Shown one piece after another: positions 16,826 through 50,700 of a stretch of 64,000 nt of DNA. How positions within the stretch are numbered: the stretch's first letter is position 1; every line of letters starts with the position of its first letter. Below the pieces are notes generated by a model. That model saw nothing but the letters and a program-made list of their open reading frames with translations. It ran no database searches and was not told the DNA's origin. The stretch is from a virus. Taxonomy: Duplodnaviria; Caudoviricetes. The position numbers were made by a program, and so were the translations under genes. The stretch lies in the IMG/VR virus record IMGVR_UViG_3300010051_000550, positions 1 through 64,000 of that record; one strand, written 5' to 3'.

Positions 16826-17410
16826 ATGGAGCATGGTGGTATCGAGATGGACGATAATTCGGTTCGTTTGTGGGAAAGGGCGCATTTGGAGCCGACACGG
16901 TGGTTCTACCGTTTCGATACGTATTACCGGCCGTTGGGGCCGGAGCGGAGTCTCCTGACGGCCTACCGATTGTGGTGTCAGGCAGAAAAGGGCAGAAAGA
17001 GCGCGGCGGTCAGCGCGCCGACGAGCTGGCGGGAGGCGGCCGAGCAGTGGCAGTGGAAGGACCGGGCCGAGGCCTGGGACATGAGCCAGCGGCTGGAGCG
17101 ACTAAAGGAAGACGACGAGGCGCGGCGCAAGAACCGGGAGCGACGGCTGGCGGTGTTGAACGCGGTGATGGCGCGGGCTTCAGACGCGCTGGTGAGGTTG
17201 AAGACGGAGGACGCGCGCTGGGGCGACGTGATCGCCGCGATCCGGCTGGCGGTGCAGGAGCTTCGTCACGAATACGGTGACGACGTGACGACGGTCAAGG
17301 TGGAAGCGGTTGACACGGCGCCGGACTGGATGATGGTCATGGCTCGGATGGATTCGGATCAGCTGGAGAAAGTCATCTCCAATCTCGACATGGTGGATAG
17401 ATATGAGTGA
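16826..17410 (+). CDS. Terminase small subunit-like protein A
   Basis: F..YY.PLGPERSL...W...A..WQWKDRAEAWD pattern seen in TerS-like proteins; helical C-terminus. Confidence 0.55.
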   Translation: MEHGGIEMDDNSVRLWERAHLEPTRWFYRFDTYYRPLGPERSLLTAYRLWCQAEKGRKSAAVSAPTSWREAAEQWQWKDRAEAWDMSQRLERLKEDDEARRKNRERRLAVLNAVMARASDALVRLKTEDARWGDVIAAIRLAVQELRHEYGDDVTTVKVEAVDTAPDWMMVMARMDSDQLEKVISNLDMVDRYE

Positions 17411-17622: not shown

Positions 17623-17916
17623 ATGGAGCCAGGTGCGGGACATATAGACGCGGGACAGGATCGGGAGCGGCGCGACAAAGTCTATGCGTTCGTCTGTTCG
17701 TTTATGAAGGCCAGCGGCGGAGTTGCGCCTTCCGCGCGGGAGATTCAGCGCGGCACGGGGCTTCGCTCGCTGAATCATGTTCACGGCTGCCTGGGCACGC
17801 TGGAGCGTGAAGGGCGCATCCAGCGCGGCAAGTTCGGCCGGCCGCGCAGCCTGCGCATCGTGGGCGCTCGCTATTTGCTGCCGGACGAGGCGGAGGCGGG
17901 AGGTCGGGACAGATGA
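17623..17916 (+). CDS. LexA-type winged-helix DNA-binding domain only (no S24 peptidase)
   Basis: RRDKVYAFV...GGVAPSAREIQRGTGLRSLNHVHGCLGTLEREGRIQR....PRSLRI matches the LexA N-domain pattern. Confidence 0.8.
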   Translation: MEPGAGHIDAGQDRERRDKVYAFVCSFMKASGGVAPSAREIQRGTGLRSLNHVHGCLGTLEREGRIQRGKFGRPRSLRIVGARYLLPDEAEAGGRDR

Positions 17917-32414: not shown

Positions 32415-32948
32415 GTGGAGATGGCCGAGTTGGTATTTGATAATTGCAGGGTGCTGGCGCTGGCAGTGGTGACGAATGGAATTCACGATGCTGTGACCGG
32501 GGTGGAAGAGGCGAGGGAGTGGATCGGCTCAGAGGTGTTTGAGTTATGGTGCGACCGGTGTGATTTGCATCCTGAGTACCTGCGCCGGCGGGTGGCGCGG
32601 CTTCTGGCTTCGGGGCGGTCTGTTCTGCTGCCGGACGATGGGGATGACGAGGCGGTGGATATTGACGAGGCGGTGCGGCTGCATGAAGAAGAGGGGTATA
32701 CCTGGTCGGAGGCCGCCGCGAAGATGAACGTGTCTGTTTCGACCTTGCGGAATAGACGCAAGGCGGCCGGGCATAACATGGCTAAGAGCACCGGCGCAGG
32801 GGCGACCGGTAAGGAGATCATCAAGATCGATTTGGAAGCGGCCAGGCGGCTGCATGAGCGGGGACTTACCTGGAGGGAGATCGCCGACCAGCTCGGGGTG
32901 AGTGCCGAGACGCTGCGACTGCGGCGGAAGGCGTTTGGAGGATTGTGA
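32415..32948 (+). CDS. Double-HTH DNA-binding protein
   Basis: YTWSEAAAKMNVSVSTL and LTWREIADQLGVSAETL. Confidence 0.75.
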   Translation: MEMAELVFDNCRVLALAVVTNGIHDAVTGVEEAREWIGSEVFELWCDRCDLHPEYLRRRVARLLASGRSVLLPDDGDDEAVDIDEAVRLHEEEGYTWSEAAAKMNVSVSTLRNRRKAAGHNMAKSTGAGATGKEIIKIDLEAARRLHERGLTWREIADQLGVSAETLRLRRKAFGGL

Positions 32949-33322
32949 TGGCTCTTTGCAGATGGTCTGATTACCGATGTGACTTGTATATCTATGAGAG
33001 CGACTGGGGCATCGAGTGCCATGTGGCCTGGCGGCGGCGCGTGGGCGAACCGGAGCCGCCGCTTATCCCCGTGGATGGGGACGATGAGGCGTGGCTGGCG
33101 TGGCAAAAGGCATTTGTGGTTTATGAAGAGCAACTGCTGGCGGCGCCGCTGGAGCGGATCGGCCTGCCCCACGACGGAGAGAGCCGCACCTTCGGCGAGT
33201 GGGGCGAGTTGCTGGCGTATGTGACGGGGTTGAAGGAGTTGGGGTATGGGGTGCCGGATTGGGTGATTGAGGAGATCAAGGAGGAGGTTGCCGCGTCCGG
33301 TTTGTTGGAAAGCGAGGAGTGA
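32945..33322 (+). CDS. Hypothetical protein
   Basis: CRWS..CDLYIYES..G..CHVA motif. Confidence 0.65.
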   Translation: MMALCRWSDYRCDLYIYESDWGIECHVAWRRRVGEPEPPLIPVDGDDEAWLAWQKAFVVYEEQLLAAPLERIGLPHDGESRTFGEWGELLAYVTGLKELGYGVPDWVIEEIKEEVAASGLLESEE

Positions 33323-33374
33323 ACATGTGTTCACGCGGGGCGTATTGACGCGCGGCCGGGGCGCGTGATAACCT
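33319..33374 (+). promoter_or_regulatory. Capsid-operon promoter with upstream SOS-box-like palindrome
   Basis: GTGAACATGTGTTCAC (33319-33334), 10 nt, TTGACG (33345-33350), 18 nt, TAACCT (33369-33374) preceded by an extended -10 TG. Confidence 0.7.
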
Positions 33375-33448
33375 ATCAGCACAGCGATAAATCATATATT
33401 CTGAGCGCGGCGCAACGGCCGCGAACAGCGACGTAAAACGTGTGAATG

Positions 33449-33484
33449 ACGCCGCTCCCAATTCGGGAGCGGCGTTTTTGTTTT
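33449..33484 (+). terminator. Leader terminator/attenuator upstream of the protease gene
   Basis: ACGCCGCTCCC-aattc-GGGAGCGGCGT-TTTTGTTTT. Confidence 0.75.
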
Positions 33485-33494
33485 CGGAGGTGGT

Positions 33495-34919
33495 ATGGCA
33501 GTTCTGACGAAGACCGGCCTGAGCGCCAATCGAGCTGAGCAAGAACCGGATGTTTCCTACATCACGCGACGGGCGCGGCTGCGGCCGGCGTCGTTTAGTG
33601 AGGTTCGGGAAGCGGGCTTGCTGGACGGGCGGGCGAACGGGGAAGGGGAGCAAGATGACACTCGGTACTGGTTCACGGCCGAGATTTCGAGCGAGGCGCT
33701 GGATTCGTATTTCACGCACATGTCGAGCGGCACTCTGCGCAACTTCGCGCGGAACGCGGCCGAGGGTGTGTCGCTGCTGGACAGCCACGACGGTCACAAG
33801 CTAGGCGTGGGGTACTCGGCCGGCGGGCGATATGAAGAGGAGAACGGCCAGGGACGCGCGTTGGGCATCTTCTACATTGTGCGCGGCATCCGGTTCGGCG
33901 GCAAGCATTCTTATGCCAGCACCGACGACCTGATCACCGCCATCGAGAACGGGGTTGTGCGCGACGTGTCGGTCGGGTTCTACGGCGGCCGGTGGGTTTG
34001 CGACTTGTGCCATCAGCCTTATTTCGGCTACGGCTCGGCCTGCAATCACTGGGCGGGGATCGAGTATGAGATTGAGCGCGACGGCAAGATGGTGCGCGAG
34101 GTGTGCACGGTCCAGATCGACGATGCGCACCTGTCGGAGGTGTCGCTGGTGTTCGATGGGGCGACGCCGGGGGCGATGATTCTGAAGGCGGAGCAGGCGG
34201 CGGAAGACGGCCGTCTGACGCCGGACATGACACGCCAACTGGAGATGCAGTACCGGATCAAGTTGCCGGGACCGGTTGCCGATGGCCGGACATTGAACGT
34301 TCGGGGCGGCTTTGTGAGCACCACCGGCAACGCGGCCGACATCAGGATCGTCGCAGGCGCGGCGGTCAATGGAGCGAGAGTGATGGAAGAGGAAGAAGTT
34401 ATCGAGACTGTGGAAGAGGTAGTTGAAGAGCCGGCCGCCGACGCGGCCGTCGACCAGGCAGGGGCGGATGAGGCTCGCGCGGAACTGGACGCGGCCCGCC
34501 AGGCGCTGACCGAGATTCGGGATGTGGTGGTCGACTCCGGCGCGCCGGAGGGCACCACGCTGGCCGTGTCGGTGCGCTGGCTGAATGAGCAGCTGGCGAA
34601 GGTCACTGAGGAGCGCGACCGTGCGCTGGGGCAGGTGGCCGAGTTGCAGCCGCTGGCCGACCAGGGGCGTGAGTATCGCTCGCGCCTGGTGGAGGAGGCG
34701 GTAGCTGAGGGCGTGCGCGCCATGAGCGCGTCGTTCCCGGAGGAGACGTATCGGGCGATGCTGGAAAACGCGCCGCTGGAGCACATTCGCAAGGTGAAGG
34801 AGACGTTCGCGGCGCAGGCGGCCGAACGGTTCCCAGGCGGGCGGCAGACGCGCGATGAAACGAGTAACGGCAAGAAGCCGAAGCCGGAAGTGCCGGCGGC
34901 GGCCTACGGGGTGAAGTAA
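33495..34919 (+). CDS. Prohead protease / scaffold fusion
   Basis: SLLDSH (His), RDVSVGF (Ser), LSEVSLV..GA HK97-type protease motifs; coiled-coil scaffold C-terminus. Confidence 0.85.
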   Translation: MAVLTKTGLSANRAEQEPDVSYITRRARLRPASFSEVREAGLLDGRANGEGEQDDTRYWFTAEISSEALDSYFTHMSSGTLRNFARNAAEGVSLLDSHDGHKLGVGYSAGGRYEEENGQGRALGIFYIVRGIRFGGKHSYASTDDLITAIENGVVRDVSVGFYGGRWVCDLCHQPYFGYGSACNHWAGIEYEIERDGKMVREVCTVQIDDAHLSEVSLVFDGATPGAMILKAEQAAEDGRLTPDMTRQLEMQYRIKLPGPVADGRTLNVRGGFVSTTGNAADIRIVAGAAVNGARVMEEEEVIETVEEVVEEPAADAAVDQAGADEARAELDAARQALTEIRDVVVDSGAPEGTTLAVSVRWLNEQLAKVTEERDRALGQVAELQPLADQGREYRSRLVEEAVAEGVRAMSASFPEETYRAMLENAPLEHIRKVKETFAAQAAERFPGGRQTRDETSNGKKPKPEVPAAAYGVK

Positions 34920-34963
34920 CCCTGAATTCTCAGTAGATGAACAGCAGGACGGAGGACTAGGAC

Positions 34964-35389
34964 ATGAGCGAGCGGACGAATGTCAGCAACATCGGCGTGG
35001 GCGGGGTCTATCGCACGTACAAGATCGACGACTCGACGATCACTTACGATGCGACGAAGCCCGGCGGCTCGGAGCAGGTGGGGCTGGCGGTAACTTTATC
35101 GGCAGCGGATACGGTGGCGCTGACGGCCGACGCGGACGAGGTGATCGGGAAGCTGATCCTCGTCGAGTCGGACGACAAGTGCACGGTGATGACCGACGGC
35201 ACGATGGCGCTGCCGGGCGGAGATGGGGCGGCCTTGACGCTGGGCACGAAGATCGTGGGCGACCTGGGGGCGGGCAACGCCAAGGGGTACATCCGGTCGG
35301 CGGCTTCGGGGCAGGCGGCCGAGTTGCTGGTGGCGCGCGGGCGAATTGAGAATGCCGGCACGGCTTCGGCCGTGGTGGTGACGCTGTAG
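34964..35389 (+). CDS. Head decoration / capsid stabilising protein
   Basis: Between protease and MCP; small beta-rich, Gly/Ala-rich. Confidence 0.65.
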   Translation: MSERTNVSNIGVGGVYRTYKIDDSTITYDATKPGGSEQVGLAVTLSAADTVALTADADEVIGKLILVESDDKCTVMTDGTMALPGGDGAALTLGTKIVGDLGAGNAKGYIRSAASGQAAELLVARGRIENAGTASAVVVTL

Positions 35390-35415
35390 GGCAAGAAGGG
35401 AGGAGAGAGAAGACG

Positions 35416-36627
35416 ATGAGCACGATTGAGACGAAAGCACGCGCCGGCGATCTGCTGGGGCAGATGGGCCTGAGCATGTACCGGCGCGCCTACGATCAGG
35501 GCATGTCCCTGTCGGCGCTGCTGGAGAAGGAAGACCCGTCGGGTGATTACCGCGACGGGACCGACGCCTTCCAGCGCATTTTGATGGCGGCCGATCTTCG
35601 CACGGAGACGCTGCCGCACTACGGGGTGCAGGCGAGCACCTTCGGCGAGTTCCTGAGCGACGAGCGGACGCGGGCCTTGATTCCCGAATGGCTGCTGCGC
35701 GAGTGGCGCAGTGTGCAGACGGGGCGGCCGTTTTCGACCCGCGCCATGTACACCAGCGCCGATGCCGCCGCCGGATCGTGGGAGCGGCCGTATGCCGAGG
35801 CGAACACGCCGCGCGTGGATCAGCAGATCGCGCCGGCCATTCCGTTGAGCCAGCTGGTCGCCATTACGACCCCGATCAACTCGGCCGAGTATCGCTCCTA
35901 CTATCTGGAGAACGACGAGAGCCAGACCAGCATGGTGCGCGTGGCTGAGGGTGCCGAGGTTCCGCGCGTGAAGCTGACCGGCAGCCAGCACGTGATCAAC
36001 CTGCTGAAGTACGGCCGCGCGCTCGAGGCCTCCTACGAGGTGTTGAAGCGCCAGCGTGTGGATCGCCTGGCGCTGACGGTGCGCATGATGGCGGCTCAGG
36101 CTGAGGCGGACAAGGTTGGGGCGATCATCGACGTGATGGTCAACGGCGACGGCAACAACAACGCGCCGACGACTCACGCGCTGACCACTCTGGACTCGAC
36201 CGCGACGCCCGGCACGCTGTCCCTGAAGGCCTGGCTGGCTTTCAAGATTAAGTTCGGCAATCCGTATGCCATCACCGGCGCGCTGGCGCAGGAGGCTGTG
36301 GCGCTGCAGATGCTTCTGTTGAACACCGGCTCGGCCAACACGCCGCTGGTGGCTGTGCAGCAGCCGAGCGGCTTCGGCGCGTTCACGCAGATCAATCCGG
36401 GCTTGCGCGACAGCGTGGCGCTGGGCTGGACGGCCGATGCGCCGTCGCTGAAGATCGTCGGTTTCGACCGCCGCTTCGCCATCGAGCGCGTGGTGGACGT
36501 GGGCATGACCATCACCGAGATCGAGCGGTTCATCACTCGTCAGGTGGAAGTGCTGGTTGTGACCGAAGCCGAAGGGTACGCCATCATCGACAAGAACGCG
36601 ATCAACGTTCTGAATGTGAACGCCTAG
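35416..36627 (+). CDS. Major capsid protein
   Basis: 403 aa; VAEGAEVP..KL, KYGRALEASYE HK97-fold patterns; high-expression codon bias. Confidence 0.85.
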   Translation: MSTIETKARAGDLLGQMGLSMYRRAYDQGMSLSALLEKEDPSGDYRDGTDAFQRILMAADLRTETLPHYGVQASTFGEFLSDERTRALIPEWLLREWRSVQTGRPFSTRAMYTSADAAAGSWERPYAEANTPRVDQQIAPAIPLSQLVAITTPINSAEYRSYYLENDESQTSMVRVAEGAEVPRVKLTGSQHVINLLKYGRALEASYEVLKRQRVDRLALTVRMMAAQAEADKVGAIIDVMVNGDGNNNAPTTHALTTLDSTATPGTLSLKAWLAFKIKFGNPYAITGALAQEAVALQMLLLNTGSANTPLVAVQQPSGFGAFTQINPGLRDSVALGWTADAPSLKIVGFDRRFAIERVVDVGMTITEIERFITRQVEVLVVTEAEGYAIIDKNAINVLNVNA

Positions 36628-39072: not shown

Positions 39073-40290
39073 ATGGCCGAGATTCCATTTGAGGCATTGT
39101 TATTGGGACTGGAGAGCACGTCGGGAACCGGAGTCGCGCCGACGCATTATGCCAGTATGGTCGGCTCGTTGAAGCCGGTGAAGGAGCGGTACCGGCCGGA
39201 CGAGGCCAGGGGCACGCTGGTTGAGGCGTATCGCTCGAAGGTAGCTCGTGAGTGGAGCGAGTGGTCGGGCGAGGGGCCGCTGGATGTGTACCTGCTGCCG
39301 GTTCTGCTGAATATGTGCGTGACCGGCAACATGACGAGCCAGCCGACGACGCCCGGCGGCGCGACGAACGCGCGGCTGTGGACGTTCAAGCCGACGATCA
39401 ACGCCAATGACCTGAAGACGGCGACGATCTTCTGGGGCGACCGGAACGTGCAGATGTTCCGTGGCCGCTTCGGAACGCTGGACGAGCTGACGATTACGGC
39501 CGATGCCTCGGGCACGGATGGCTCGAAGATGTCGGCCAGCGGCCGGACGCAGATTCAGGATTACGAAGAGTACGACGTCTCAGCGATCTCGAAGGACAAC
39601 CCGGCCGAGGTGACCATCGGCACGCACTCGCTTCTGGCGGGCGATAAGGTGCGAATCGTCGGCGGTGAGATGGTGGAGCTGCACGATCTGGTGTTCACTG
39701 TGGCGAACCCGACGGGCACGACCGTTGAACTGGCGGGGATCGATTCGACCGGATATACGACCTACGTGGGGGGCGGCACGCTGGAGAAGGTGGCGCCGGC
39801 GTTCCCGTCCATCCTGACCGCGCCGCTGATCTCGGGGCCGGGGATGCAGATGTGGCTGGATACGTCCTCGGCGATTGGGTCGACGGAGATTTCGGGCCGG
39901 CTGATTTCGGCCGAGCACGTGATTCCGGTCAACTACGGGTACAAGCACCTCGCCGTCGGCCCGGCCGGCGCGAAGACGTACTCGCGGGTCGGCCGCAACA
40001 AGCGCTCGATCACGACTCGCGTGACGCTGGAACTGTTCGACATGGATCAGTATAAGTTGTTCCAGAACGAGACAAACACCAAGCTGCGAATCCGGCACAA
40101 CGGAGACTTGATCGAGGCCGGCTTCTACCACTACGTGGAAGTGGACACCTACGGGCCGTTGAACTTCACGGATTGGGGCGAGTTGGAAGGGACGAACCGG
40201 ACGCTGACGCTGGAAATACAGAGCCAATATGACGCGACGCTGGGGGCGGACTTCAGCGTGAAGGTGCAGAACGACCGGGCGACGCTTTAG
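39073..40290 (+). CDS. Major tail (tube) protein with an inserted E1-FCCH-like beta domain
   Basis: GLESTSGT start; insert AISKDNPAEVT..HSL..GDKVRI.G.M.EL...FTV...T..TVEL.GIDSTGY. Confidence 0.8.
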   Translation: MAEIPFEALLLGLESTSGTGVAPTHYASMVGSLKPVKERYRPDEARGTLVEAYRSKVAREWSEWSGEGPLDVYLLPVLLNMCVTGNMTSQPTTPGGATNARLWTFKPTINANDLKTATIFWGDRNVQMFRGRFGTLDELTITADASGTDGSKMSASGRTQIQDYEEYDVSAISKDNPAEVTIGTHSLLAGDKVRIVGGEMVELHDLVFTVANPTGTTVELAGIDSTGYTTYVGGGTLEKVAPAFPSILTAPLISGPGMQMWLDTSSAIGSTEISGRLISAEHVIPVNYGYKHLAVGPAGAKTYSRVGRNKRSITTRVTLELFDMDQYKLFQNETNTKLRIRHNGDLIEAGFYHYVEVDTYGPLNFTDWGELEGTNRTLTLEIQSQYDATLGADFSVKVQNDRATL

Positions 40291-40314
40291 TACGATTGCA
40301 ATACATTCCGTGAG

Positions 40315-40355
40315 GGAAGAGTATGGAAAGGCCTCGAATTCGAGGCCTTTTTGTT
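40315..40355. terminator. Terminator hairpin, left copy of an imperfect direct repeat
   Basis: GGAAGAGTATGGAAAGGCCTCGAATTCGAGGCCTTTTTGTT. Confidence 0.75.
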
Positions 40356-40426
40356 GAGATTGTACGATGATCAGAATGTCGATGAGCATCATTGATTAAG
40401 TTCTGGATGGACTATATCAATTATAA

Positions 40427-40855
40427 TTGACAGATCGAGTTCAAATGATCTATTATCCGGTTCCCTCAATCGAAATGAGCGCCCGGCAACATCGAGGGCG
40501 GGTGTCGAAAGTGCTAACTGGGCAAACAACCAATATGAGCGAAGAAAACAATGCCATCGAATTTAATATAGTCTGGGAATCGGATAGACACCTCCAGACG
40601 ATCTATGCCAATCACTTCTATATCACTCACGCTGGAGACGAGTTCTATTTGATGTTTGGCGAGCTACCGTCTCCAAATATTGCGAATATGGCCCCGGACA
40701 AAATAAGAGACTATCTTGGCGACAGTCTTGAGATCAGGCCCTTGGTACGGCTGGCTATCGCGCCTCAAACGATGCTCAGGATAGCCGAGGCCATACAAAC
40801 GAATGTGTCCAATTACATCGGGAAAAATATCGGTGGTAAGGACGATGAAGAATGA
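40427..40855 (+). CDS. DUF3467-like protein
   Basis: IYANHFYITHAGDEFYLMFG...PLVRLAIAPQT; likely start 40445 or 40535 because TATAAT lies at 40422-40427; low GC. Confidence 0.75.
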   Translation: MTDRVQMIYYPVPSIEMSARQHRGRVSKVLTGQTTNMSEENNAIEFNIVWESDRHLQTIYANHFYITHAGDEFYLMFGELPSPNIANMAPDKIRDYLGDSLEIRPLVRLAIAPQTMLRIAEAIQTNVSNYIGKNIGGKDDEE

Positions 40856-41301
40856 GCACCCTAACTCTAAGAGTTGATCCATTTTCCGGAACCGGCCTAA
40901 ATAGAGGACATCAGAAGATCGGCGATCTGCCAGCAATCTATCGCCGCAAGACAAATACAACGGCCCGCCCTAAGGTTACTCTGAGCGATGAGTCCAACTC
41001 GTCAACCGATACCGATTCAGGGGTCACATATCTTGTAGGACAAGGCGGGATCGACGGTGAATGGAAGCTCTTACAACCTCTCTCCATCGTCATAGAAATT
41101 GACGAGGACGGCGATTACATTGTGTCCGACAAAGTGTTCTCTAGATACGGTGTAGGTGCAACTGTGCTGGAGGCATTTAAGGACTTCATATCCGATCTAA
41201 CCACGTACTACACGATTGTTGCTGAGTCCGCGGCGCACAATCCGGCCGCGGCAGCGTTGTTAGAGGAGATTCAACAGTACCTTCAACGAGCAGATGGCTA
41301 A
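40852..41301 (+). CDS. HicB-like antitoxin with N-terminal extension
   Basis: IVIEIDEDGDYIV....YGVGATVLEAFKDF partial RNaseH fold pattern; ATGA coupling. Confidence 0.65.
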   Translation: MSTLTLRVDPFSGTGLNRGHQKIGDLPAIYRRKTNTTARPKVTLSDESNSSTDTDSGVTYLVGQGGIDGEWKLLQPLSIVIEIDEDGDYIVSDKVFSRYGVGATVLEAFKDFISDLTTYYTIVAESAAHNPAAAALLEEIQQYLQRADG

Positions 41302-41312
41302 ATACGTCTCAA

Positions 41313-41609
41313 ATGTTTACATCGAAACAGATTTTACGCACTTTGCGCACCAAGTTTAAATTTACCGACGTTAAAGGAAAGTATGCAGATATATACGTTA
41401 CGCTTGAACTCCCTGGAGTTCGGCCAGTTGTAACAAAGGTTTCACATCCTAAGTCCCAAAGAAAAACTGTCGGGAAACCCCTTGAGAACCTGATGGCAAA
41501 GCAGTTGCGCGTTGAGACACAGTACTTCCGTAACATGATCGGATGCACGCGCAGTCAGGAAGAGTATTATGAGCGACTCAGGTCAGAGCAGTTCCCGCCT
41601 GTCGAGTAG
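41313..41609 (+). CDS. HicA-like toxin (putative mRNA interferase)
   Basis: Small and basic; KQILRTL..KF.F..,TKVSH (His), KPLENLMAKQL. Confidence 0.6.
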   Translation: MFTSKQILRTLRTKFKFTDVKGKYADIYVTLELPGVRPVVTKVSHPKSQRKTVGKPLENLMAKQLRVETQYFRNMIGCTRSQEEYYERLRSEQFPPVE

Positions 41610-41621
41610 GTTCCCTGCGAA

Positions 41622-41665
41622 GGAAGAGTATGGAAAAGCCCCTCGAAATCGAGGGGCTTCTTGTT
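41622..41665. terminator. Terminator hairpin, right copy of the imperfect direct repeat
   Basis: GGAAGAGTATGGAAAAGCCCCTCGAAATCGAGGGGCTTCTTGTT. Confidence 0.75.
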
Positions 41666-41803
41666 TATTGGGGGCTAACCCACACCCCTCACGCCCGTGA
41701 GAGCAACCCATCGGCCGCAGGTTTCCGGTTCATCTGACGGTGTCTACCGTACCTGGGCGTTTAACGACTCGATCTATGTAGTATCGCTTTGACGAGTTAT
41801 TAA

Positions 41804-44800
41804 TCATGTTTTTGATAATCTCTGAAGTACGCGTTTTATGGGCGGGTTCTTGATGTTACGAGGGATAATGGGCAAATCACCTTTTTGTAAGGCAGCAATA
41901 TCCGGATCGTTTTCTCCTATCTCCCATGCGGACCGAATAATCAACTCATGCTTTCCAATTGCATAATCCCAATCCGGATCAGGAAACTCTGTTTCCGAGA
42001 TGTATTGTGCAGGTAGGAGGACATACCTTCCCACACTTTTATAGTTCTTCAAAAAACCATCTAGATTATCGGAGTTCTGTGGCTCCATTGTATGAACCCG
42101 ACTAACCAGATGTAATTGGTTGCCCTTTGATGGCCTAATAGCATTAAGGTTAGTAGAAATCATCATTCTGTAATTAGCTTTTTTTCTTCTGTTAATCCCC
42201 CTAATAATCGAGATTCGCAACTGATCCTCTTCGTCAACACTGCCAAATCTGTCTATCCACTTTCTGAAAATATGTTTGGCTGGCTCTATATTCTCGAAGC
42301 CAAGGCCCAAAATCAGTACATCTTCAGGCAAAAAACCGAAACTGATTGCGGTCCATTTTGCCCTATCCCAAAGCGGAATGTTAATAAGCGAAATTATCTT
42401 GCGATCTTTGTGTTTCAAATTATCGATTGCGAATGAGGACTCAGGAATTTCGCCTTTTCCTAATTCCAGAGTCCATTCCTCTCTTTCATCTATGCCCTCT
42501 GCTTCTAAGTGATGATCCCACGGGAGACTACGTTTCATGGGATAATCGATATCGCTTTTATCATCTTTCCAATCGGAAAGGCGGAATCTAGGCGAACTTC
42601 CGATCATATTCACAACCGCAATGTCAATGTCTGTAATAAGCATTGCTCGACCAATGCTATGCTCGCTTTTGGCTAGTCGCTCCGTGAATGAATCAGTATC
42701 AACAACCACACCAATTTGAAGAGTTGTGTGAAGTAGAAAGTCCAGTAGCCATGCACTGAAGTCGCCCCTCTCATCCTGATTAGTCCGTCTTAATGTCCGG
42801 GGATGCCTAATGCTTATGGTTTGGCCAGTAGCCGTTTCATCGGTTTCAAACTTTGGCAAGCCGGCAAGGAAATCAGATGGTTCAATCGAAATATGCAATT
42901 CAGAGCGATACGGCAATATTACACTTTCAAGGCTCGTTGCTAATAATGCTTCAAGCGCCCCTAAGATCGTTTCGGCCAAATATATCGAGGTATGGTCATT
43001 GAATGCGTGAATTGACACCTCGCAACCGAGTACATTCGAGCGAAGAGTAACCTTCTTGCTCAAGAGCAAGTCAGGTTGGTACAACAAGTCGCGGCTGGCA
43101 GGTTGATTACGCCACCTTATGAATAAGTCACAAATTTCTTCAGGGCTGTCGTTCTCAGAAATGATATTCTCTGAACGCAGGTATTCCTCATATCCCAGTA
43201 CATACAACAGCGCCATCCGTGAGTAGGAAAGTTCCGCTCGCTCCAAGACTGACGGTAAGAAGTTGAGCCATTTTGAATCCCATATGCTTAGCCTCAAGAA
43301 CTGTATCGCTAAGACCTGATCCTGAATAGTCCGTTCATTTATGAACTTCTCTTGTTTCTCCTCATTTAGGAGCAAGGATTTTGCCAACAATGAAGCTACT
43401 TCTATCCATTCAAGAACGTGAGGGATGCGACCCAGTTGTAACTCCAACCAAATTATCCTTTGGGTGAGGGCAAGTGTCTGCGGCAAGAGTTTTCCATATT
43501 TATGGTATGCTGACCAAGAAGAGTTGATAGCAATAAGGAGATTTGAACGTGCTGCCCATAATAATCCAACTCTTTCATACGCAGCTCCACAGGCAGCAAC
43601 TGACATAATCCACTCCTCCATATGCTCCTCCACGGCCAATTCCTGTTGGGACTTTCCGAGGAGCCTGATAGCATCGTAATTCTTACCTGCTAGCAATTTT
43701 TGATACCCACGTGTAAGATGCAATTCTCCGGCTACGCTATCACCTGTTCTACGCTTAATGAATTCCTCGACCTCTTCCATCAATTCATCGTACTTAGCGT
43801 GAGACGCCAGAATCATTCCTAGCTCTTGAATGATATGAATTGTCGAGATAACAGGGTACTCGGCCAGCCCTTGGCTCTTCTTTAAAATACTTCCAAGCTG
43901 AGTGAGGATACCATTCACTCCTCGTCCCTTTGCCAACGCCTCGGCTAGTTCCATGAGTAATTTGATTGTGCGTGCATGATGTGCATTATTCGGACGTTGG
44001 GAGCTCATTGCCAGGCGGTTGAGTTCGGCTTTAGCTGTCCTAGTACGTTTCGATAATTTTCTCCTGCTTGTACCGGGCCGGCCCCGCTGGACTTCAACAT
44101 GAAGAAGTTGCCATAGATTGATCATCAGTTCGATATCAGTTGTCTGATTACTGCCTACTGCCAACTCCTCGACTCGTTCATACAAATTGTCAAACAACTC
44201 AATATCGCCGTACCACCAATATGCTGTCCAAGCTCTATTGTAAGCAATACGTAACATCTGCTGCCGATGTCCAACTTTCATGGCAACATGCTCAGCACGT
44301 TCGAACCTAGCTTCGATCTCCATCCGAGAAAGTTCAAGCCCACGCGCAAGCAGTGCCACTTGCAAGCAGTCTTCCGCGAGTTGATACCTAACCCCCTTGT
44401 ATCTCTCAGGGTCATTGATGCGCTCCTCGAGTTCCTTCATTTCTGCTTGACGTTTTGTGTCCTGTGATCCCAACTCCCTCTTCGATAATTCACCGAAGCC
44501 TTCTATATGGAGCGATTCAATTGCAAGTCGTAACCGCTCGTGCTCGAAGACGCACTTTACGATCCAATTTCGATCAAGTACCCGAACATCTATGCTGAAC
44601 TCTCGGGACAAGGCATCTTCAACTTCAGCTCGGGTGCTGTCCTTTACAAATTGATTTGTTATGAAATAAACAAGCTTGTAGCTTCGATTAGTCTTGGCGA
44701 TTTTCTCGACGTCAGACCGAACCTTTGATCGCCAGTCTTTCTTGGCGCTGAAGGCAAATGCCCACCGTTCTTGACTAGCTTCCCTACCAACCCCCTCATA

Positions 44801-45142
44801 CCACCCTAGCGCAAGCTCGTCCGCAACCGGGTAAGTCTCGGTATCCACTTTACTGTCCCCTCCACCAGTCGACCCGGTTTGAGGTATCAGGTTTGGACAA
44901 ATTTCCTTTTCTGCCAATCTTCTGCAAAAGTGTTCGAATTCAATTTCTTGTTTTCGATGAGTAAGGGTTTCTAAGTGGTATTCGAAGCTCACTTGTGTCA
45001 ATTGAAGTGTAGTTGAGACCCTAGTATCAGAAAAAAGTTCGGGTCGCCGAGCGCGCATGAAGTCTGAGGGACGCCACTGCGATCCCTGTTGGTGTTCAAC
45101 ATCATGCGATGATGCTTCTTCAGGTAAACTGGTTTTCGACAT
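41804..45142 (-). CDS. Putative defence protein: N-terminal REase-like (PD-D/ExK) domain + TPR-like helical region
   Basis: 1112 aa, low GC; FEHFCRRL...TGGGDSKVD...FAFSAKKDW..KV.SDV.KI...Y.LVYFITNQ; no P-loop seen. Confidence 0.6.
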   Translation of the reverse strand: MSKTSLPEEASSHDVEHQQGSQWRPSDFMRARRPELFSDTRVSTTLQLTQVSFEYHLETLTHRKQEIEFEHFCRRLAEKEICPNLIPQTGSTGGGDSKVDTETYPVADELALGWYEGVGREASQERWAFAFSAKKDWRSKVRSDVEKIAKTNRSYKLVYFITNQFVKDSTRAEVEDALSREFSIDVRVLDRNWIVKCVFEHERLRLAIESLHIEGFGELSKRELGSQDTKRQAEMKELEERINDPERYKGVRYQLAEDCLQVALLARGLELSRMEIEARFERAEHVAMKVGHRQQMLRIAYNRAWTAYWWYGDIELFDNLYERVEELAVGSNQTTDIELMINLWQLLHVEVQRGRPGTSRRKLSKRTRTAKAELNRLAMSSQRPNNAHHARTIKLLMELAEALAKGRGVNGILTQLGSILKKSQGLAEYPVISTIHIIQELGMILASHAKYDELMEEVEEFIKRRTGDSVAGELHLTRGYQKLLAGKNYDAIRLLGKSQQELAVEEHMEEWIMSVAACGAAYERVGLLWAARSNLLIAINSSWSAYHKYGKLLPQTLALTQRIIWLELQLGRIPHVLEWIEVASLLAKSLLLNEEKQEKFINERTIQDQVLAIQFLRLSIWDSKWLNFLPSVLERAELSYSRMALLYVLGYEEYLRSENIISENDSPEEICDLFIRWRNQPASRDLLYQPDLLLSKKVTLRSNVLGCEVSIHAFNDHTSIYLAETILGALEALLATSLESVILPYRSELHISIEPSDFLAGLPKFETDETATGQTISIRHPRTLRRTNQDERGDFSAWLLDFLLHTTLQIGVVVDTDSFTERLAKSEHSIGRAMLITDIDIAVVNMIGSSPRFRLSDWKDDKSDIDYPMKRSLPWDHHLEAEGIDEREEWTLELGKGEIPESSFAIDNLKHKDRKIISLINIPLWDRAKWTAISFGFLPEDVLILGLGFENIEPAKHIFRKWIDRFGSVDEEDQLRISIIRGINRRKKANYRMMISTNLNAIRPSKGNQLHLVSRVHTMEPQNSDNLDGFLKNYKSVGRYVLLPAQYISETEFPDPDWDYAIGKHELIIRSAWEIGENDPDIAALQKGDLPIIPRNIKNPPIKRVLQRLSKT

Positions 45143-45216
45143 ATTAGATCAGCCGCACTGCACACGCCTATGGGAGCATCGCCGGGGTGCTTTATGTTGG
45201 CGCGCAAACGGATTTG

Positions 45217-46056
45217 TTAGTTCGTTTCGAAGCCGTGCGCAGCCAGGAAGTAGCGGCTGCAACTGGCGGTGTTACTAAACAGGTTGACGCTGAAGGGTAG
45301 CTCGGCGTTAGCGTCGACCTCCCCTTGGTCTGTGAAGGAACTGGGGGCAGCGATGGGCACCAGGTCGTCGTCGAAGCAGATGGCAGCGCCCTGAACAAGG
45401 TCCAGCGGGGCGTCGTTGGAGTTCAGCAGTATGCCGACGATATTGTTGCCGACGATATTGTGCTCAAGGACTTCGAGGTCGCGACGGGCAAGAAAGACGC
45501 TAGGGGCGTCTTGGGCTGTAACGCGGTAGTCGATGGTGGCGCCGTCCAGGTCAGTGTCCATGAACCCGACTGTACCGAAGGCGACGCTTCCAGGGGGCAC
45601 GTAGGATGGGGCGAAGAGAAGCCCGGAGCCGGTGCCTAGGACGCCGCCGGCTTCGTCACGGGCGGTGGCAGAGATTTCGACGTTGTAGACGGGGGCGTCG
45701 ACGTTGTTGCGGACGACAACGGAGATGCTACCGAATTCACTGGGCTGACCTTGGGCAATCACGGAGAGGCCGGGACCACCAGCGGGCAGATCGTCGGGGG
45801 TTATGTTGGCTGTGGCGAGGTAGGAAGTGGGTTCGATTGCGGCCGCGGGCGCTGGGGTAGGAGGCGGCGGTGCCGTCGGGGCGACTTCAACGAGGCGGGT
45901 GACCTCCACCTCAATCTCGACGAGGCGGGTGACTTCTACTTCAATCTCAACCAAGCGGGTAATTTCGATTTGCTCGGCTTGGGGGGCGGCCGTGGGCTGT
46001 CCGCCGCAGGCGCTAAGAAGATGGGTAGCGAGAGCGATTAGGGCAATGCGTTTCAA
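45217..46056 (-). CDS. Lipoprotein with VEVTRLVE repeats and FxLYD-like domains
   Basis: GGAGG RBS before TTG 46056; lipobox LSAC; EVTRLVEIEV repeats; VRNN..A.VYNVEI.A...D..G.VLGT. Confidence 0.75.
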   Translation of the reverse strand: MKRIALIALATHLLSACGGQPTAAPQAEQIEITRLVEIEVEVTRLVEIEVEVTRLVEVAPTAPPPPTPAPAAAIEPTSYLATANITPDDLPAGGPGLSVIAQGQPSEFGSISVVVRNNVDAPVYNVEISATARDEAGGVLGTGSGLLFAPSYVPPGSVAFGTVGFMDTDLDGATIDYRVTAQDAPSVFLARRDLEVLEHNIVGNNIVGILLNSNDAPLDLVQGAAICFDDDLVPIAAPSSFTDQGEVDANAELPFSVNLFSNTASCSRYFLAAHGFETN

Positions 46057-46370
46057 TGGGAGCCTCCTGTTTGTATCGGATTGGCTCGGCCACGGGAACA
46101 CGCGGCGGAGTATGAGGCGGACTATAAATGATAGGGTCTATCTGGTCAATCGTTTTGGCGAGGCGCGGCCGATGTGGATGGCGTGGGCTTGGTGGGCAGG
46201 GCGGTCCCGGCTGGATGTGGTTACCATGTACACTAGAGACGCGCGGGTTTTCATTCGGCCGGGGGATGAGATCTGGCGGAATAGCGGGGATTGCGAGTTA
46301 TAATGTGCGGAAGGGGTTGAAGTGTCGCGGTTTTGGTGGAGTTTGTTTTGTGCAAAAGGAGTGAAACAAA

Positions 46371-46595
46371 ATGACCGATGCATTATTGAGGTTGATTATG
46401 CTTGACGTAGAGGAAGGGATCAGGAAGAGAAGCTATTCGGGATACACGGATGAAGCAGTTCTCTCGCATAAGCAATATCTACTCGACAGCGGGCTGGCAA
46501 AGGGAAACCGGCAACGCGGCGATGATACCGTGAAATCTGTTATTCTGACCGGCTTGACCGAACGTGGAAAAGAGCTTCTGAGCACGTTGGGTTGA
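46371..46595 (+). CDS. DUF2513-like winged-helix protein
   Basis: LLRLIML.VE..., EAVLSH..YLLDSGL..G, LT..G.ELL. Confidence 0.6.
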   Translation: MTDALLRLIMLDVEEGIRKRSYSGYTDEAVLSHKQYLLDSGLAKGNRQRGDDTVKSVILTGLTERGKELLSTLG

Positions 46596-46823
46596 TGTTA
46601 ACAACGGTCGCTGTCAGCACACTTTCTGTGATAGATTTCTTGACAAGGAGTGGATTGCTTTCAGTCGATTATGGGAATTAAGAGGAGGCCCCTGAGCGAT
46701 CAGGGGTCTCTCCGTTTTAGCGGACGGGGAGACCAAGGTCGGGCCGGACTTCTTGGATCATCTGCACAATTACTGTTCGAAGTCGGGGTAGATGTTGAAG
46801 AGGTCGGCTCTCGAAGACTTCCT

Positions 46824-46878
46824 GTGAACATCTGTTCACATCGGCCGCGTGTACAGGAGTGCTCGAGTGACCTATAAT
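46824..46878 (+). promoter_or_regulatory. Tail-operon promoter with upstream SOS-box-like palindrome
   Basis: (T)GTGAACATCTGTTCAC(A) (46823-46840), 10 nt, TGTACA (46850-46855), 17 nt, TATAAT (46873-46878). Confidence 0.7.
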
Positions 46879-46939
46879 ATTAGCAATTGAATTTGCCTCG
46901 CGGAGAACCCGCGAGTAGCGACGTGAAACGACCGGACAC

Positions 46940-46982
46940 ACGCCGCGCTGACATGTAGTAGTCAGCGCGGCGTTTTTTATTT
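46940..46982 (+). terminator. Leader terminator/attenuator upstream of the tail chaperone gene
   Basis: ACGCCGCGCTGAC-atgtagta-GTCAGCGCGGCGT-TTTTTATTT. Confidence 0.75.
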
Positions 46983-47006: not shown

Positions 47007-47432
47007 ATGGGACTTTTGGTAGACAGAAACACGCCGCCGGTTGCCGTGAAGTTCGGCAACGACCCCGATGACGAGCAAGAGGTGAACACCGTCTTCGTCA
47101 AGGCCAGATTCACACTGGGGGACACGATTCAGATCGAGGAGGCCAGCCTGCGACTGGAGGTGGCCCAGTCCGATGACAGCAAGGACGGAGAGCCGCAGGC
47201 CTTTCGCGTGCCGGTATCCACCATCGGTCAGATGGTGGCCGCTATGCGGCACGCCGTGACGGGCTGGGAGGGGCCGATGTTCAAGGATCACCGCTATCGC
47301 CGGAGCATCTGGAACGACATCGACATCGCGGAGAACGAGTGGTGGATTCGCAAGGTTCACAAGCGGATTGACGAACTCAACACGCCGCGTACCGATGACC
47401 CGAAGCCGGCGAAAAGCCCAAACGCCAAGTAG
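47007..47432 (+). CDS. Tail assembly chaperone (G)
   Basis: Upstream of the tape measure gene; ends at a slippery site. Confidence 0.75.
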   Translation: MGLLVDRNTPPVAVKFGNDPDDEQEVNTVFVKARFTLGDTIQIEEASLRLEVAQSDDSKDGEPQAFRVPVSTIGQMVAAMRHAVTGWEGPMFKDHRYRRSIWNDIDIAENEWWIRKVHKRIDELNTPRTDDPKPAKSPNAK

Positions 47433-47722: not shown

Positions 47723-50700
47723 ATGGCTGCTGAACTGGCAATCATCGCCAAACTGCAGGACGACGCATCGTCCGGCATTCGCTCACTTCGGGGGGAAGTT
47801 GAGGGACTGGGGGACTCCGGAGGAATTGCGGCGAAGGGGTTCCAGACGCTGCAGAGTGTGGGGACGGCGTCGATTGTTGCCATTGGCGTGGCCGTGGCTG
47901 CGGCCACAGCGGCGGCCGTGTCGTTCGTCAAGTCGGCAATTGACGCCGGCATCGAGTTTGAGTCGGCCTTCGCGGGCGTGGTCAAAACCGTTGATGGAGT
48001 AGCCGATGCCAGTGGGGCTTTGACTGAATTGGGGCAGCAGTTGCGGGATGAGTTCCGGCAACTGGCTTTGGAAATCCCCATTGCGGTTACGGAACTAGCC
48101 AGGATCGGCGAGTTGGGCGGACAACTCGGCGTAGCCTCCGGTGATCTCATCGCCTTCACAGAACTGATTGCCAAGCTGGGAGTGACAACGAATCTCTCCA
48201 CTGAGGAAGCGGCGATGTCGTTTGCCCAGTTGGGGAACATCATGCAGTCGTCTCAGGACGATTTGACGCGGCTCGGCTCGTCCATCGTGTGGTTGGGAAA
48301 CAACTTCGCAACCACTGAGGCGGAGATCGTGGAGTTCACATCACGCATCGCCGGTGCGGGCGCGATAGCCAATATGTCGGAAGCAGACCTGGCCGGTATC
48401 GCCGCCGCGTTTGCTTCGGTTGGCGTAAGCGCAGAGGCAGGCGGTACGGCCGTGCAGAAGGTCATCCTGGACATGAACACGGCCGTGGTTTCTGGGGGTG
48501 CTCAACTTGAGCTTTACGCCAGGACGGCCGGAATGACTGCGCAGGAGTTCGCGCAGGCGTGGCGAGAAGACGCGGCGGGGGCGTTTATAGCGTTCGTGGA
48601 GGGGTTGGGGCGCGCCGGCGACCAAGCCATCCTGATCCTGAAGGAGTTGGGGCTGACGGATGCTCGATTGACGCGCGGCTTCCTGTCGGTGGCCAACGCC
48701 GGTGAACTACTGCGAGAGGCGGTCGAGGGCAGTAATCAGGCGTTCCGGGAGAACATGGCGCTGGTGCGGGAGGCGGCACTGCGGTTCCAGACGGTCGAGA
48801 GCCAGATGCAGTTGTTCCGCAATGTCATTAACGACGTCAAGATTTCGCTCTATGACGCACTGCGGCCGGCGATTGGGGCGATCATCGCCGCGCTGACACT
48901 GTTCCTCACGTCGGTGGCCCCCCAGGTTCGCGAGGTATTTCAGGCGATAGGCGGGGCCGTCAACGAACTGGTGACGGCTCTGCTGAAGGGGGAGTCTCCT
49001 GTTCTGGCTCTGGTCGACGCGCTTTACATGCTTGGCGCAGGGCTTGGCATGCCGATTGAGAGGCTTGAAGCGATACGACAAGGCGTTCTGAATTTCATTT
49101 CGGGTGTCAGCAGAGTTTTGGGGCCTATCGCGCAGGCTATCACCTCATTTTTCTCGTGGAAGGATGTGCTGGTCGCGCTGGGGGTTGCTATCGCGAGCGT
49201 GGTTATTCCGGCGCTAATTGCCATCGTGCAGTTCGCCGCGCCCATTGTGGCGGTGTTTGGAGGGCTGGTGCTGGCAATCGCAGCCGTGCGGAATGCGTGG
49301 GAGGCGGATTTCCTGGGTATCAGGACGGCTGTAGAGGGCTTTGTCCAGAATGTTTTGAAGCTGATCGAAACGCTGCGGGCCACGAATTTGGACGATTTTT
49401 CGCGCCTCTTCAACGAGCTGCCGCCGCTATTCCAGGAGGCCGCGCGGGCATTGGTGAATCTGAAGGACGCACTGCGAATCGCTTTGGATGGTATTAGGGC
49501 TTTGCTCAGCGGCGATACGGCGACGGCGATGGAGGCGTTTCGCTCGGCATGGGAGAAGGGCTGGACTGCCATCGTCGGCTTTGTGCAGAATGCGGGGGCG
49601 CAGATCGGACAGGCTTTGCAAGGGTTGTGGCAGGGCATTGTGGCGTGGTTCCAGAGCGTGGACTGGGGCGGTCTGGCGCGGGACTTGATCGAGAGGTTCC
49701 TGAGCGGGATGGCGGCGCTGGGGCAGGCGCGGGCTGACCTGTGGGCGTGGATTCTCACTGCGCTGACGAATTTCATCAACAGCGTCGATTGGGCGCAGAT
49801 CGGCTATTCGCTGGTTGACCTGCTGGGCAAGGGGATTCTGGGAGCCGTTGGGCTGATCGCGACGGCCGTGGCGGGCATCGTTACCTTCATCTGGAATTTC
49901 ATCACCGGCACGAACTGGATCGAACTGGGAATCAACCTGGTCAACGCCGTGATAGATGGCTTGGGTTCGTTCGCTAGCGGTGTAGGCGCGAAGCTGGCCG
50001 AATGGCGTCAGGCCATCTTCGACTGGGCCGGCGCTGAGGACTGGAGCGGCGTTGCCGAGAAGATTTCCACGATGGTCGGCGAGAAGCTAGGAGAGATGAG
50101 AGACGCGATTTCCGGCAAGCTCAACGAGTGGCAGACTGCGATCTTCGACTGGGCCGGAGCAGAGGACTGGAGTGGCGTTGCGGCGCACATTGCCGAGAAC
50201 ATCGGCGAGAAGCTGGGTGAGGCGGGGGACGCGATCTCCGGCAAGCTCAACGAGTGGCAGGCGGCCATCTTCGACTGGGCCGGGGCTGAGGATTGGCAAG
50301 GGGTTGCTGATCATATTGCCGAGAACATCGGTGAGAAGCTGGGCGAGGCCGGGAGCAGTGTCACCGCGACGCTCAGCAATTGGCAGAGGGCTATCTTCGA
50401 TTGGGCGGGGGCTGAAGATTGGAATGGAGTGGCAACGCACATTGCCGAATTGGTAGGTTCGGCTTTGGGAGATGCGGCCGGTTCTATTGTTTCGACTTTG
50501 GATAGCTGGGAGCAGGCTATCTTCGACTGGGCTGGAGGAGCGGATTGGGGGGACGTGTCGGAGTCTATCGCCACCCTGGTGGGCGACTCTCTGGGAGAGA
50601 CCAGCGACAAGGTTACAGGCAAGCTGAGCAGCTGGATCACGGCGTTCACTGACTGGGTCAACACGGTCGACTGGTATCAGGTCGGCTATGACATCATGTA

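Follow-up and report, generated by a model that had tools for sequence, protein, structure and literature searches.

A 16-bp palindrome occurs twice in the genome of a tailed phage of a Chloroflexota host, once upstream of the -35 element of the promoter for the head operon (first gene at 33495) and once upstream of that for the tail operon (first gene at 47007). These palindromes are best explained as operators for LexA-family winged-helix proteins, and we assign a probability of roughly 55% to this explanation taken together with the mechanism proposed below. Judged from sequence, it is quite likely that some protein of the LexA family reads the site, and probable that the LexA of the host binds it. 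Binding by the short LexA-like protein encoded by the phage itself, referred to here as mini-LexA, is a possibility that falls somewhat short of even odds, and binding of the site by both proteins must be regarded as rather doubtful. The analysed DNA, hereafter called the window, comprises the first 64 kb of a 79,666-bp IMG/VR provirus record, which is ~82% complete. The features discussed in the text are listed in Table 1.

Table 1. Elements of the two late-promoter regions, the gene for mini-LexA, and related cassettes.
Feature	Position	Strand	Description
Palindrome 1	33319..33334		GTGAACATGTGTTCAC; Cheo-type LexA-box core with T...A flanks; PWM score 20.9 bits
Predicted head-operon promoter	33345..33374	+	Sigma-70 type; TTGACG (33345), 18-nt spacer, TAACCT (33369)
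Site 1 leader	33404..33476	+	GC hairpin, box AGCGACGTAAAACG (33427-33440), intrinsic terminator (33448-33476), before ATG 33495
First head-operon genes	33495..36627	+	474 aa; 141 aa (virion structural protein); 403-aa major capsid protein
Palindrome 2	46824..46839		GTGAACATCTGTTCAC; PWM score 22.4 bits
Predicted tail-operon promoter	46850..46878	+	TGTACA (46850), 17-nt spacer, TATAAT (46873)
Site 2 leader	46898..46973	+	Hairpin, box AGCGACGTGAAACG (46917-46930), intrinsic terminator (46940-46973), before ATG 47007
Mini-LexA	17623..17916	+	97 aa; LexA-type winged HTH only, without cleavage site or S24 domain
L003			Viral contig (IMGVR_UViG_3300033121_002288), on the G635 contig; syntenic with site 1; GGGAACATCTGTTCAC
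L002			Second contig (IMGVR_UViG_3300033121_002336), same metagenome as L003; GGGAACATCCGTTTAC
L153			Ardenticatenia MAG; before the same tail gene as site 2; ATGAACGCCTGTTCAC
L139			Anaerolineae MAG; contig begins at -35, uninformative upstream

Both palindromes were found where the initial annotation of this DNA had placed them, and they are the only matches to the 16-mer GTGAACA-N2-TGTTCAC in the whole record. With two mismatches allowed, the number of matches in the window was still two, as compared to 0.11 expected, and none of 100 shuffles reached this value. The scan of the entire 79,666 bp for the core GAAC-N4-GTTC recovered the same two sites only, both at late promoters. Since two bare cores against 0.83 expected are not significant, the significance of the sites derives from the 16-mer and its conservation in relatives, not from the core motif by itself. 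An ORF located upstream, at 32945-33322, terminates within the first palindrome (stop codon TGA, 33320-33322). From the end of each palindrome to a -35-like hexamer (TTGACG at 33345; TGTACA at 46850), the distance is exactly 10 nt, a spacing which had also been read correctly in the initial annotation. No other recurrent palindrome of the record occupies a regulatory position; the remaining ones are found in the O-like gene (iteron-like), near 78.4 kb, and within the coding sequence of a 2444-aa tail ORF. The repeats in the replication O-like gene (1713-2804) are three copies of GGTTAG-N5-CTAACC at 2228-2310, which look like origin iterons.

The genes of the provirus are arranged in the order integrase, replication O-like gene, ParB-like and methylase genes, terS-like gene, the LexA-like gene, a gene for a 232-aa protein, terL, and portal gene. 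The next ~11 kb are accessory genes; they are succeeded by a block that extends from site 1 through the head genes to the major tail protein, then by an island, and finally by site 2 with the tail genes. The island between the major tail gene and site 2 is a 6-kb, low-GC block on the opposite strand. It is thus fair to say, as the earlier description did, that both promoters restart structural genes downstream of accessory blocks. The tail operon starts with the ATG at 47007 of a 141-aa tail gene, for which 53 homologues were found, followed by the 2444-aa ORF at 47723, which is taken, solely for its size and position, to be the tape-measure gene. The product of the 474-aa head gene (33495-34919) belongs to a PHROG of unknown function and gave no Pfam match. 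It displays the conserved motifs DSHDG, VSVGFY, and CDLC...C.H as well as a long C-terminal half that looks helical by eye; these motifs, which were judged by eye only, suggest a prohead protease-scaffold fusion.

An insertion hotspot is located between the major tail gene and the tail gene that follows it; this gap corresponds to positions 40290-46824 in the window, 5145-7431 in L004, and 284-2400 in L153. Three relatives carry three different islands in it, and the related locus in the Chloroflexota genome G324 has none. The low-GC block in the window includes a 1112-aa minus-strand ORF (41804-45142), and the island in L004 contains other minus-strand genes.

The SOS boxes used for comparison were read from genomes that carry related prophages, not from the own host of this provirus. 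The lexA operator CGAACATGTGTTCG is identical in three Chloroflexota genomes of different orders (G001, G002, and G324). In all of them, it represents a Cheo-type box between the -35 and -10 elements, TTGACA-g-CGAACATGTGTTCG-tgt-TATACT. The inner 12 nt of palindrome 1 are the same as the inner 12 nt of this operator. The recA promoters of G001 (L267, G001:C338) and G324 (L268, G324:C19) contain two LexA-type boxes each, the centres of which are 41 bp apart. The proximal box (AGAACATCTGTGC or CGAACATCCGTGC) fills the spacer up to the -10 element. The distal box (TGAACGATTGTTCA or TGAACATCGATTCA) is located 18 nt upstream of -35 when the distance is taken from the 12-nt core end, or 17 nt when it is taken from the 14-mer. 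These distal boxes (TGAAC...TTCA) share their T...A flanks with the phage palindromes.

A PWM built from only six host SOS boxes, all from hosts of related prophages, gave scores of 20.9 and 22.4 bits for the two phage sites versus 15-23 bits for the host boxes. With scores within or above this range and a good match to the lexA and recA operators of three Chloroflexota genomes, the interpretation of the palindrome as a LexA box in the initial annotation is supported. By sequence, the LexA of the host should recognise both sites. The phage sites also share a conserved outer G...C pair at +/-8, which is not a conserved feature of the host boxes. A literature search for a paper on the LexA box of Chloroflexi returned nothing usable. 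Matches to YGAAC-N4-GTTCR were also present elsewhere in the host genomes; most of those inspected were intragenic.

Outside the two late promoters, only one position in the record reached a PWM score of at least 12 bits, i.e. 44583, within the island ORF. No host-type LexA boxes were detected with the PWM near the integrase/replication end or the early genes of this ~82% complete record. LexA-type control thus appears to be confined to the late promoters; with no LexA boxes at the early promoters, only the late promoters, and not induction as such, would be wired to LexA. The match at 44583-44596 (CGAACATCTATGCT) scores 15 bits, similar to the recA proximal boxes, and is located inside the 1112-aa minus-strand ORF. 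It may be a chance match in AT-rich DNA or belong to an internal or mis-called start region.

Relatives of the two late-promoter regions were fished with the leader box described below, and the palindrome played no part in their selection. Loci were kept only if a strong terminator follows the leader box, and four independent cassettes remained (L003, L002, L153, and L139). Loose scans of metagenomes and genomes with the leader pattern yielded mostly chance matches; L139 and L153 were the real ones among the matches listed, after the terminator filter. The phylum-wide pattern search (401 genomes) and the class-wide protein search (251 genomes) added only G324. From alignment-based searches, only L004-L008 were gained, a later one recovering nothing but the same contig. 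No relatives were obtained among viral contigs when single proteins encoded 3' of sites 1 and 2 served as queries. L008 belongs to a distant phage with a GC content of 39.5% and was discarded as an informative relative.

The motif GAAC-N4-GTT(C/T) was present in all three cassettes with upstream DNA (L003, L002, and L153). Its background frequency of 3.3e-5 per nt, determined on 1.57 Mb of unrelated DNA, corresponds to ~0.004 matches per 130 nt and to a probability of ~8e-8 for three of three. The PWM scores of these copies are 16.3 bits (L003), 16.5 bits (L153), and 6.9 bits (L002), the latter copy being decayed. L002 and L003 probably belong to one phage, and our comparative claims draw on three phage lineages with five sites. 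The 10-nt spacers as well as the -35 and -10 elements differ between the sites while the dyad is constant, which indicates that the dyad is under selection. The hexamers of the head promoter keep their position in relatives, and the surrounding sequence differs. In G324 (L254/L257), a leader with its terminator is located directly 3' of the major tail gene, with neither island nor promoter nor palindrome; in L007, the portal gene is followed by the head genes without any cassette. Hence, the palindrome goes with the promoter, not with the leader RNA. The GAAC-N4-GTTC sequence at position 5855 of L004 was rejected as a chance match within a coding region.

The position of the palindrome relative to the promoter was calculated for predicted transcription starts, assumed to lie ~7 nt after the -10 element. 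The centre of the 12-nt core is then located at ~-54.5 (site 1), ~-53.5 (site 2), ~-54 (L153), and -75.5 (L002 and L003). The latter value is due to a 21-nt block between the dyad and -35. The palindrome accordingly ends 10 nt, or 31 nt in the long-spacing form, upstream of -35, and its distances to the -10 element are 34, 33, 34, 55, and 55 nt. The two forms differ by 21-22 nt in this distance, the long form being known from one lineage only (L002 and L003). The additional block in L002 and L003 is AT-rich, with a consensus of roughly TTAATAWTATTAAATA, and UP-element-like; it is absent from the window and from L153.

A dyad that may keep its helical face when displaced, upstream of non-consensus promoters, looks like an activator site or a site of RNA-polymerase contact, the phasing being taken from one lineage. 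The operators of the host are placed differently. Their centres are at -22.5 (lexA), -18.5 (recA proximal), and -59.5 (recA distal), so that they either overlap the promoter core or are paired in phase, whereas the phage sites stand alone upstream. Common to the phage sites and the Cheo-type host operators (CGAAC-N4-GTTCG) is the core GAAC-AT[G/C]T-GTTC, and the phage sites have T...A flanks and an upstream placement like the recA distal box. A lone LexA dimer at ~-54, with no box in the promoter itself, would be in a poor position to act as a roadblock or repressor. Simple repression by LexA is therefore not the obvious reading of a site located upstream of -35.

The LexA-type HTH protein without a peptidase part and the lack of a visible CI, both reported in the initial annotation, were corroborated by our analysis. 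Mini-LexA matches the LexA_DNA_bind family (PF01726) above the cut-off, with an E-value of 1.5e-7 and a score of 31.5 bits, and a sequence search of the PDB gave a single match, the LexA of T. maritima (3k2z). The AlphaFold model of the protein, obtained with five homologues (pLDDT 71.7), comprises three helices plus a beta wing, and its tails are disordered. The best nine matches in the fold search were all LexA N-terminal domains (1lea: TM-score 0.78, rmsd 1.6 A). Mini-LexA is colinear with the N-terminal domains of host LexA and with gp6 of the Bacillus thuringiensis tectivirus GIL01, and ends ~20 aa after the wing. BLASTP produced no alignment between mini-LexA and gp6, which can be aligned only via the LexA framework. 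The record encodes no S24 peptidase (PF00717) and no HTH_3 repressor above the cut-off, and no CI-type repressor is recognisable in it. Four homologues of mini-LexA were found in the homologue search; among GenBank phages, only weak matches in Listeria and Staphylococcus phages were obtained.

The gene for mini-LexA is part of the packaging module, between the terS-like gene (16826-17410) and the genes for the 232-aa protein, terL, and portal. The order terS-like gene, mini-LexA, 232-aa gene, terL is also present in G001 (L251) and G635 (L258). Mini-LexA and the palindrome occur together in all three lineages that could be checked, namely the window, G635 (on one contig), and G001 (in the same MAG, on different contigs). 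Neither of them was found in the fragmentary assembly of G324. Three residues of the recognition helix (R48, S49, and V53) are invariant among the homologues, while N51, H52, H54, and G55 vary. The variable positions, which we take from the structure to be equivalent to base-contacting residues of E. coli LexA, differ from those in host LexA.

These features have to be weighed against an explanation in which host LexA is the sole reader of the palindromes and represses the late promoters until DNA damage occurs, with mini-LexA binding elsewhere or having another role. A variable recognition helix next to a palindrome that is constant across lineages fits the invariant host LexA better than mini-LexA. 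The spacer bases (AT[G/C]T) are also those of the lexA and recA boxes of the host, recA promoters of the host also possess a T...A-flanked box upstream of -35, and promoter P3 of GIL01 is repressed by LexA (PMC6182141). However, none of the five phage promoters has a second LexA box that overlaps the -35 element, the spacer, or the -10 element, while the distal recA box of the host is always paired with a proximal one 41 bp away. The phage sites are also displaced by 6 nt from the register of the recA distal boxes, and their outer G...C pair is not that of a host box. With early genes devoid of LexA boxes, SOS control limited to the late promoters would be surprising. We consider exclusive reading by host LexA to be unlikely, although it is the most serious of the alternatives.

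A role of mini-LexA is favoured by its co-occurrence with the palindrome, the activator-like position of the latter, the outer G...C pair, and the GIL01 precedent. In addition, mini-LexA, as a DNA-binding product of the packaging operon, should have a target, for which the palindrome is the sole candidate dyad. The proposal of the initial annotation that the virion genes are wired directly to host LexA and/or to the phage LexA-like protein can thus be retained as far as the match to LexA-family operators at both late promoters and the co-occurrence of mini-LexA are concerned; the position of the sites argues against plain SOS repression.

The protein of 177 aa encoded directly 5' of site 1 (32415-32948) contains two HTH motifs, one of HTH_23 type and one resembling sigma-70 region 4. 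The only HTH_3-like signals of the record are in this protein, both below the cut-off. If this or another DNA-binding protein of the phage were to read the palindrome, the likeness of the latter to a LexA box would be coincidental. The gene adjoins site 1, which is a common place for late regulators, and the outer G...C of the 16-mer go beyond the LexA 14-mer. Yet no homologue of the 177-aa gene or of a 125-aa gene immediately 5' of site 1 was detected in L003 and L258, the portions of the G635 contig covered by the analysis, which are separated by a gap of ~2 kb; this contig possesses both the palindrome and mini-LexA. Identity of the 12-nt core to the lexA operator of the host also makes coincidence unlikely. 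Recognition by such a phage protein is therefore improbable, clearly more so than reading by host LexA only.

Both promoters are followed by conserved leaders with terminators, which were absent from the text of the initial annotation. Alignment of the two regions revealed a common leader box, AGCGACGT(A/G)AAACG, at 33427 and 46917. Of all intrinsic terminators between 30 and 48 kb, those of the two leaders are the strongest; their stems measure 12 and 13 bp and are succeeded by T-runs. No family reached the threshold in an Rfam search with the leader. Given terminators of this strength, control of the promoters is not by itself sufficient to turn on the virion genes. In G324 (L254/L257; G324:C119, about 1100-1250), a leader hairpin, a GCGACGTGAAAC box, and a terminator were observed between the major tail gene and a tail gene whose product starts with MGILV, with no promoter. 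Its presence there means that the leader is older than, or independent of, the palindrome-promoter module. Since box and hairpin have both been kept in G324 without a promoter, they point to an RNA-level read-through signal separate from the palindrome; the leader element itself probably acts at the RNA level.

The palindrome could also be something other than a protein operator, i.e. an RNA hairpin at the 3' end of the upstream transcript, a loading site of the Q/AlpA type, or a scar of island insertion. Indeed, both copies can fold as a 6-bp hairpin (-7.4 and -8.3 kcal/mol) and lie at the downstream edge of accessory islands. A hairpin or terminator function was rejected because no T-run follows and because conservation across lineages concerns the sequence itself, which equals the SOS box of the host, and not just the pairing; moreover, no co-directional gene ends at site 2. 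As to a loading site, the arrangement of a promoter and a close intrinsic terminator before late or lysis genes is shared with lambda PR'-qut-tR'/Q and with the AlpA system, the latter having an upstream DNA-damage signal. The binding element of lambda Q is located between -35 and -10. This is also true for the AlpA binding element of the P. aeruginosa alpB promoter (PMC7969949). The palindromes end 10 or 31 nt upstream of -35, a position that led us to reject this reading; homologues of Q or AlpA were not identified in the phage. Taken together, explanations in which the palindrome is not a protein operator are very improbable.

The preferred reading of the palindromes as operators for LexA-family proteins includes the following mechanism. 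In the lysogen, host LexA could occupy the sites. Mini-LexA, expressed from the packaging operon in the course of lytic growth, would then occupy these sites and help RNA polymerase from ~-54 (or, in one relative, from -75.5, two helical turns further), acting like a class I activator and like gp6 of GIL01. The transcripts would then have to pass the leader terminator, for which a second, antitermination input would be needed. In its most elaborate form, the mechanism would involve competition between host LexA and the uncleavable mini-LexA for one operator, which would be silent when bound by LexA and activated when bound by mini-LexA. Together with the read-through signal of the leader, this would amount to a three-input gate. 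We offer this version as a speculative one and regard it as unlikely.

In GIL01, the protein gp7 of ~50 aa stabilises LexA on DNA. Host LexA and gp7 repress the late promoter P3 of this phage from two boxes (dinBox2/3) located downstream of -35, while gp6, a truncated LexA homologue, activates P3 in a class II manner from the palindrome GaCACAC-GTGTGaC centred at -43.5 (PMC6182141). The early promoter P1 is under LexA control as well (PMC6182141; Fornelos et al., 2018). The phage examined here is similar to GIL01 in being temperate with no recognisable CI, in having LexA-type boxes at a structural-gene promoter, and in encoding a LexA domain without the self-cleaving half that acts, or here is predicted to act, on that promoter. 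The differences are as follows. The GIL01 boxes are downstream of -35, while here each promoter has one LexA-box-like site, placed upstream (~-54 or -75.5). The gp6 palindrome is unlike a LexA box and overlaps -35, as opposed to a sole conserved dyad that is LexA-box-like and lies upstream of -35. Finally, this is a tailed phage of a Chloroflexota host, with no LexA box at its early promoters and with two late promoters, for head and tail genes, each in series with a leader terminator. The induction logic had been called unusual in the initial annotation. This is an overstatement in view of the GIL01 precedent (PMC6182141), and the suggested scheme also needs amendment, as early boxes are lacking and the leader terminators would act as a further gate.

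With regard to position, the sites resemble known upstream activator sites. Dyads of P2 Ogr and P4 Delta are centred near -55, and class I CRP sites are of the same kind. As in these systems, the dyad of the phage is located near -54 before non-consensus late promoters, and it is shifted by two helical turns in one relative. The proteins are unrelated (zinc-finger Ogr, CRP), the DNA motifs differ, and the contact with RNA polymerase is predicted in our case.

To our knowledge, almost nothing is known about gene regulation in Chloroflexota phages. The closest precedent for the late-gene switch is a single Bacillus phage, GIL01, and the logic outlined here is thus not unprecedented. Although its practical significance is modest, the locus offers a compact testable system composed of a 16-bp site, a 97-aa protein, and host LexA. 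The analysis also provides the first directly read SOS operators, i.e. the lexA operator and the dual box at recA, for Anaerolineae/Ardenticatenia-type genomes. If, from an activator position, mini-LexA does read what is a genuine SOS box of the host, the case of GIL01 gp6 would be extended to tailed phages, and a captured LexA domain would be able to keep the DNA specificity of the host protein with its regulatory sign reversed.
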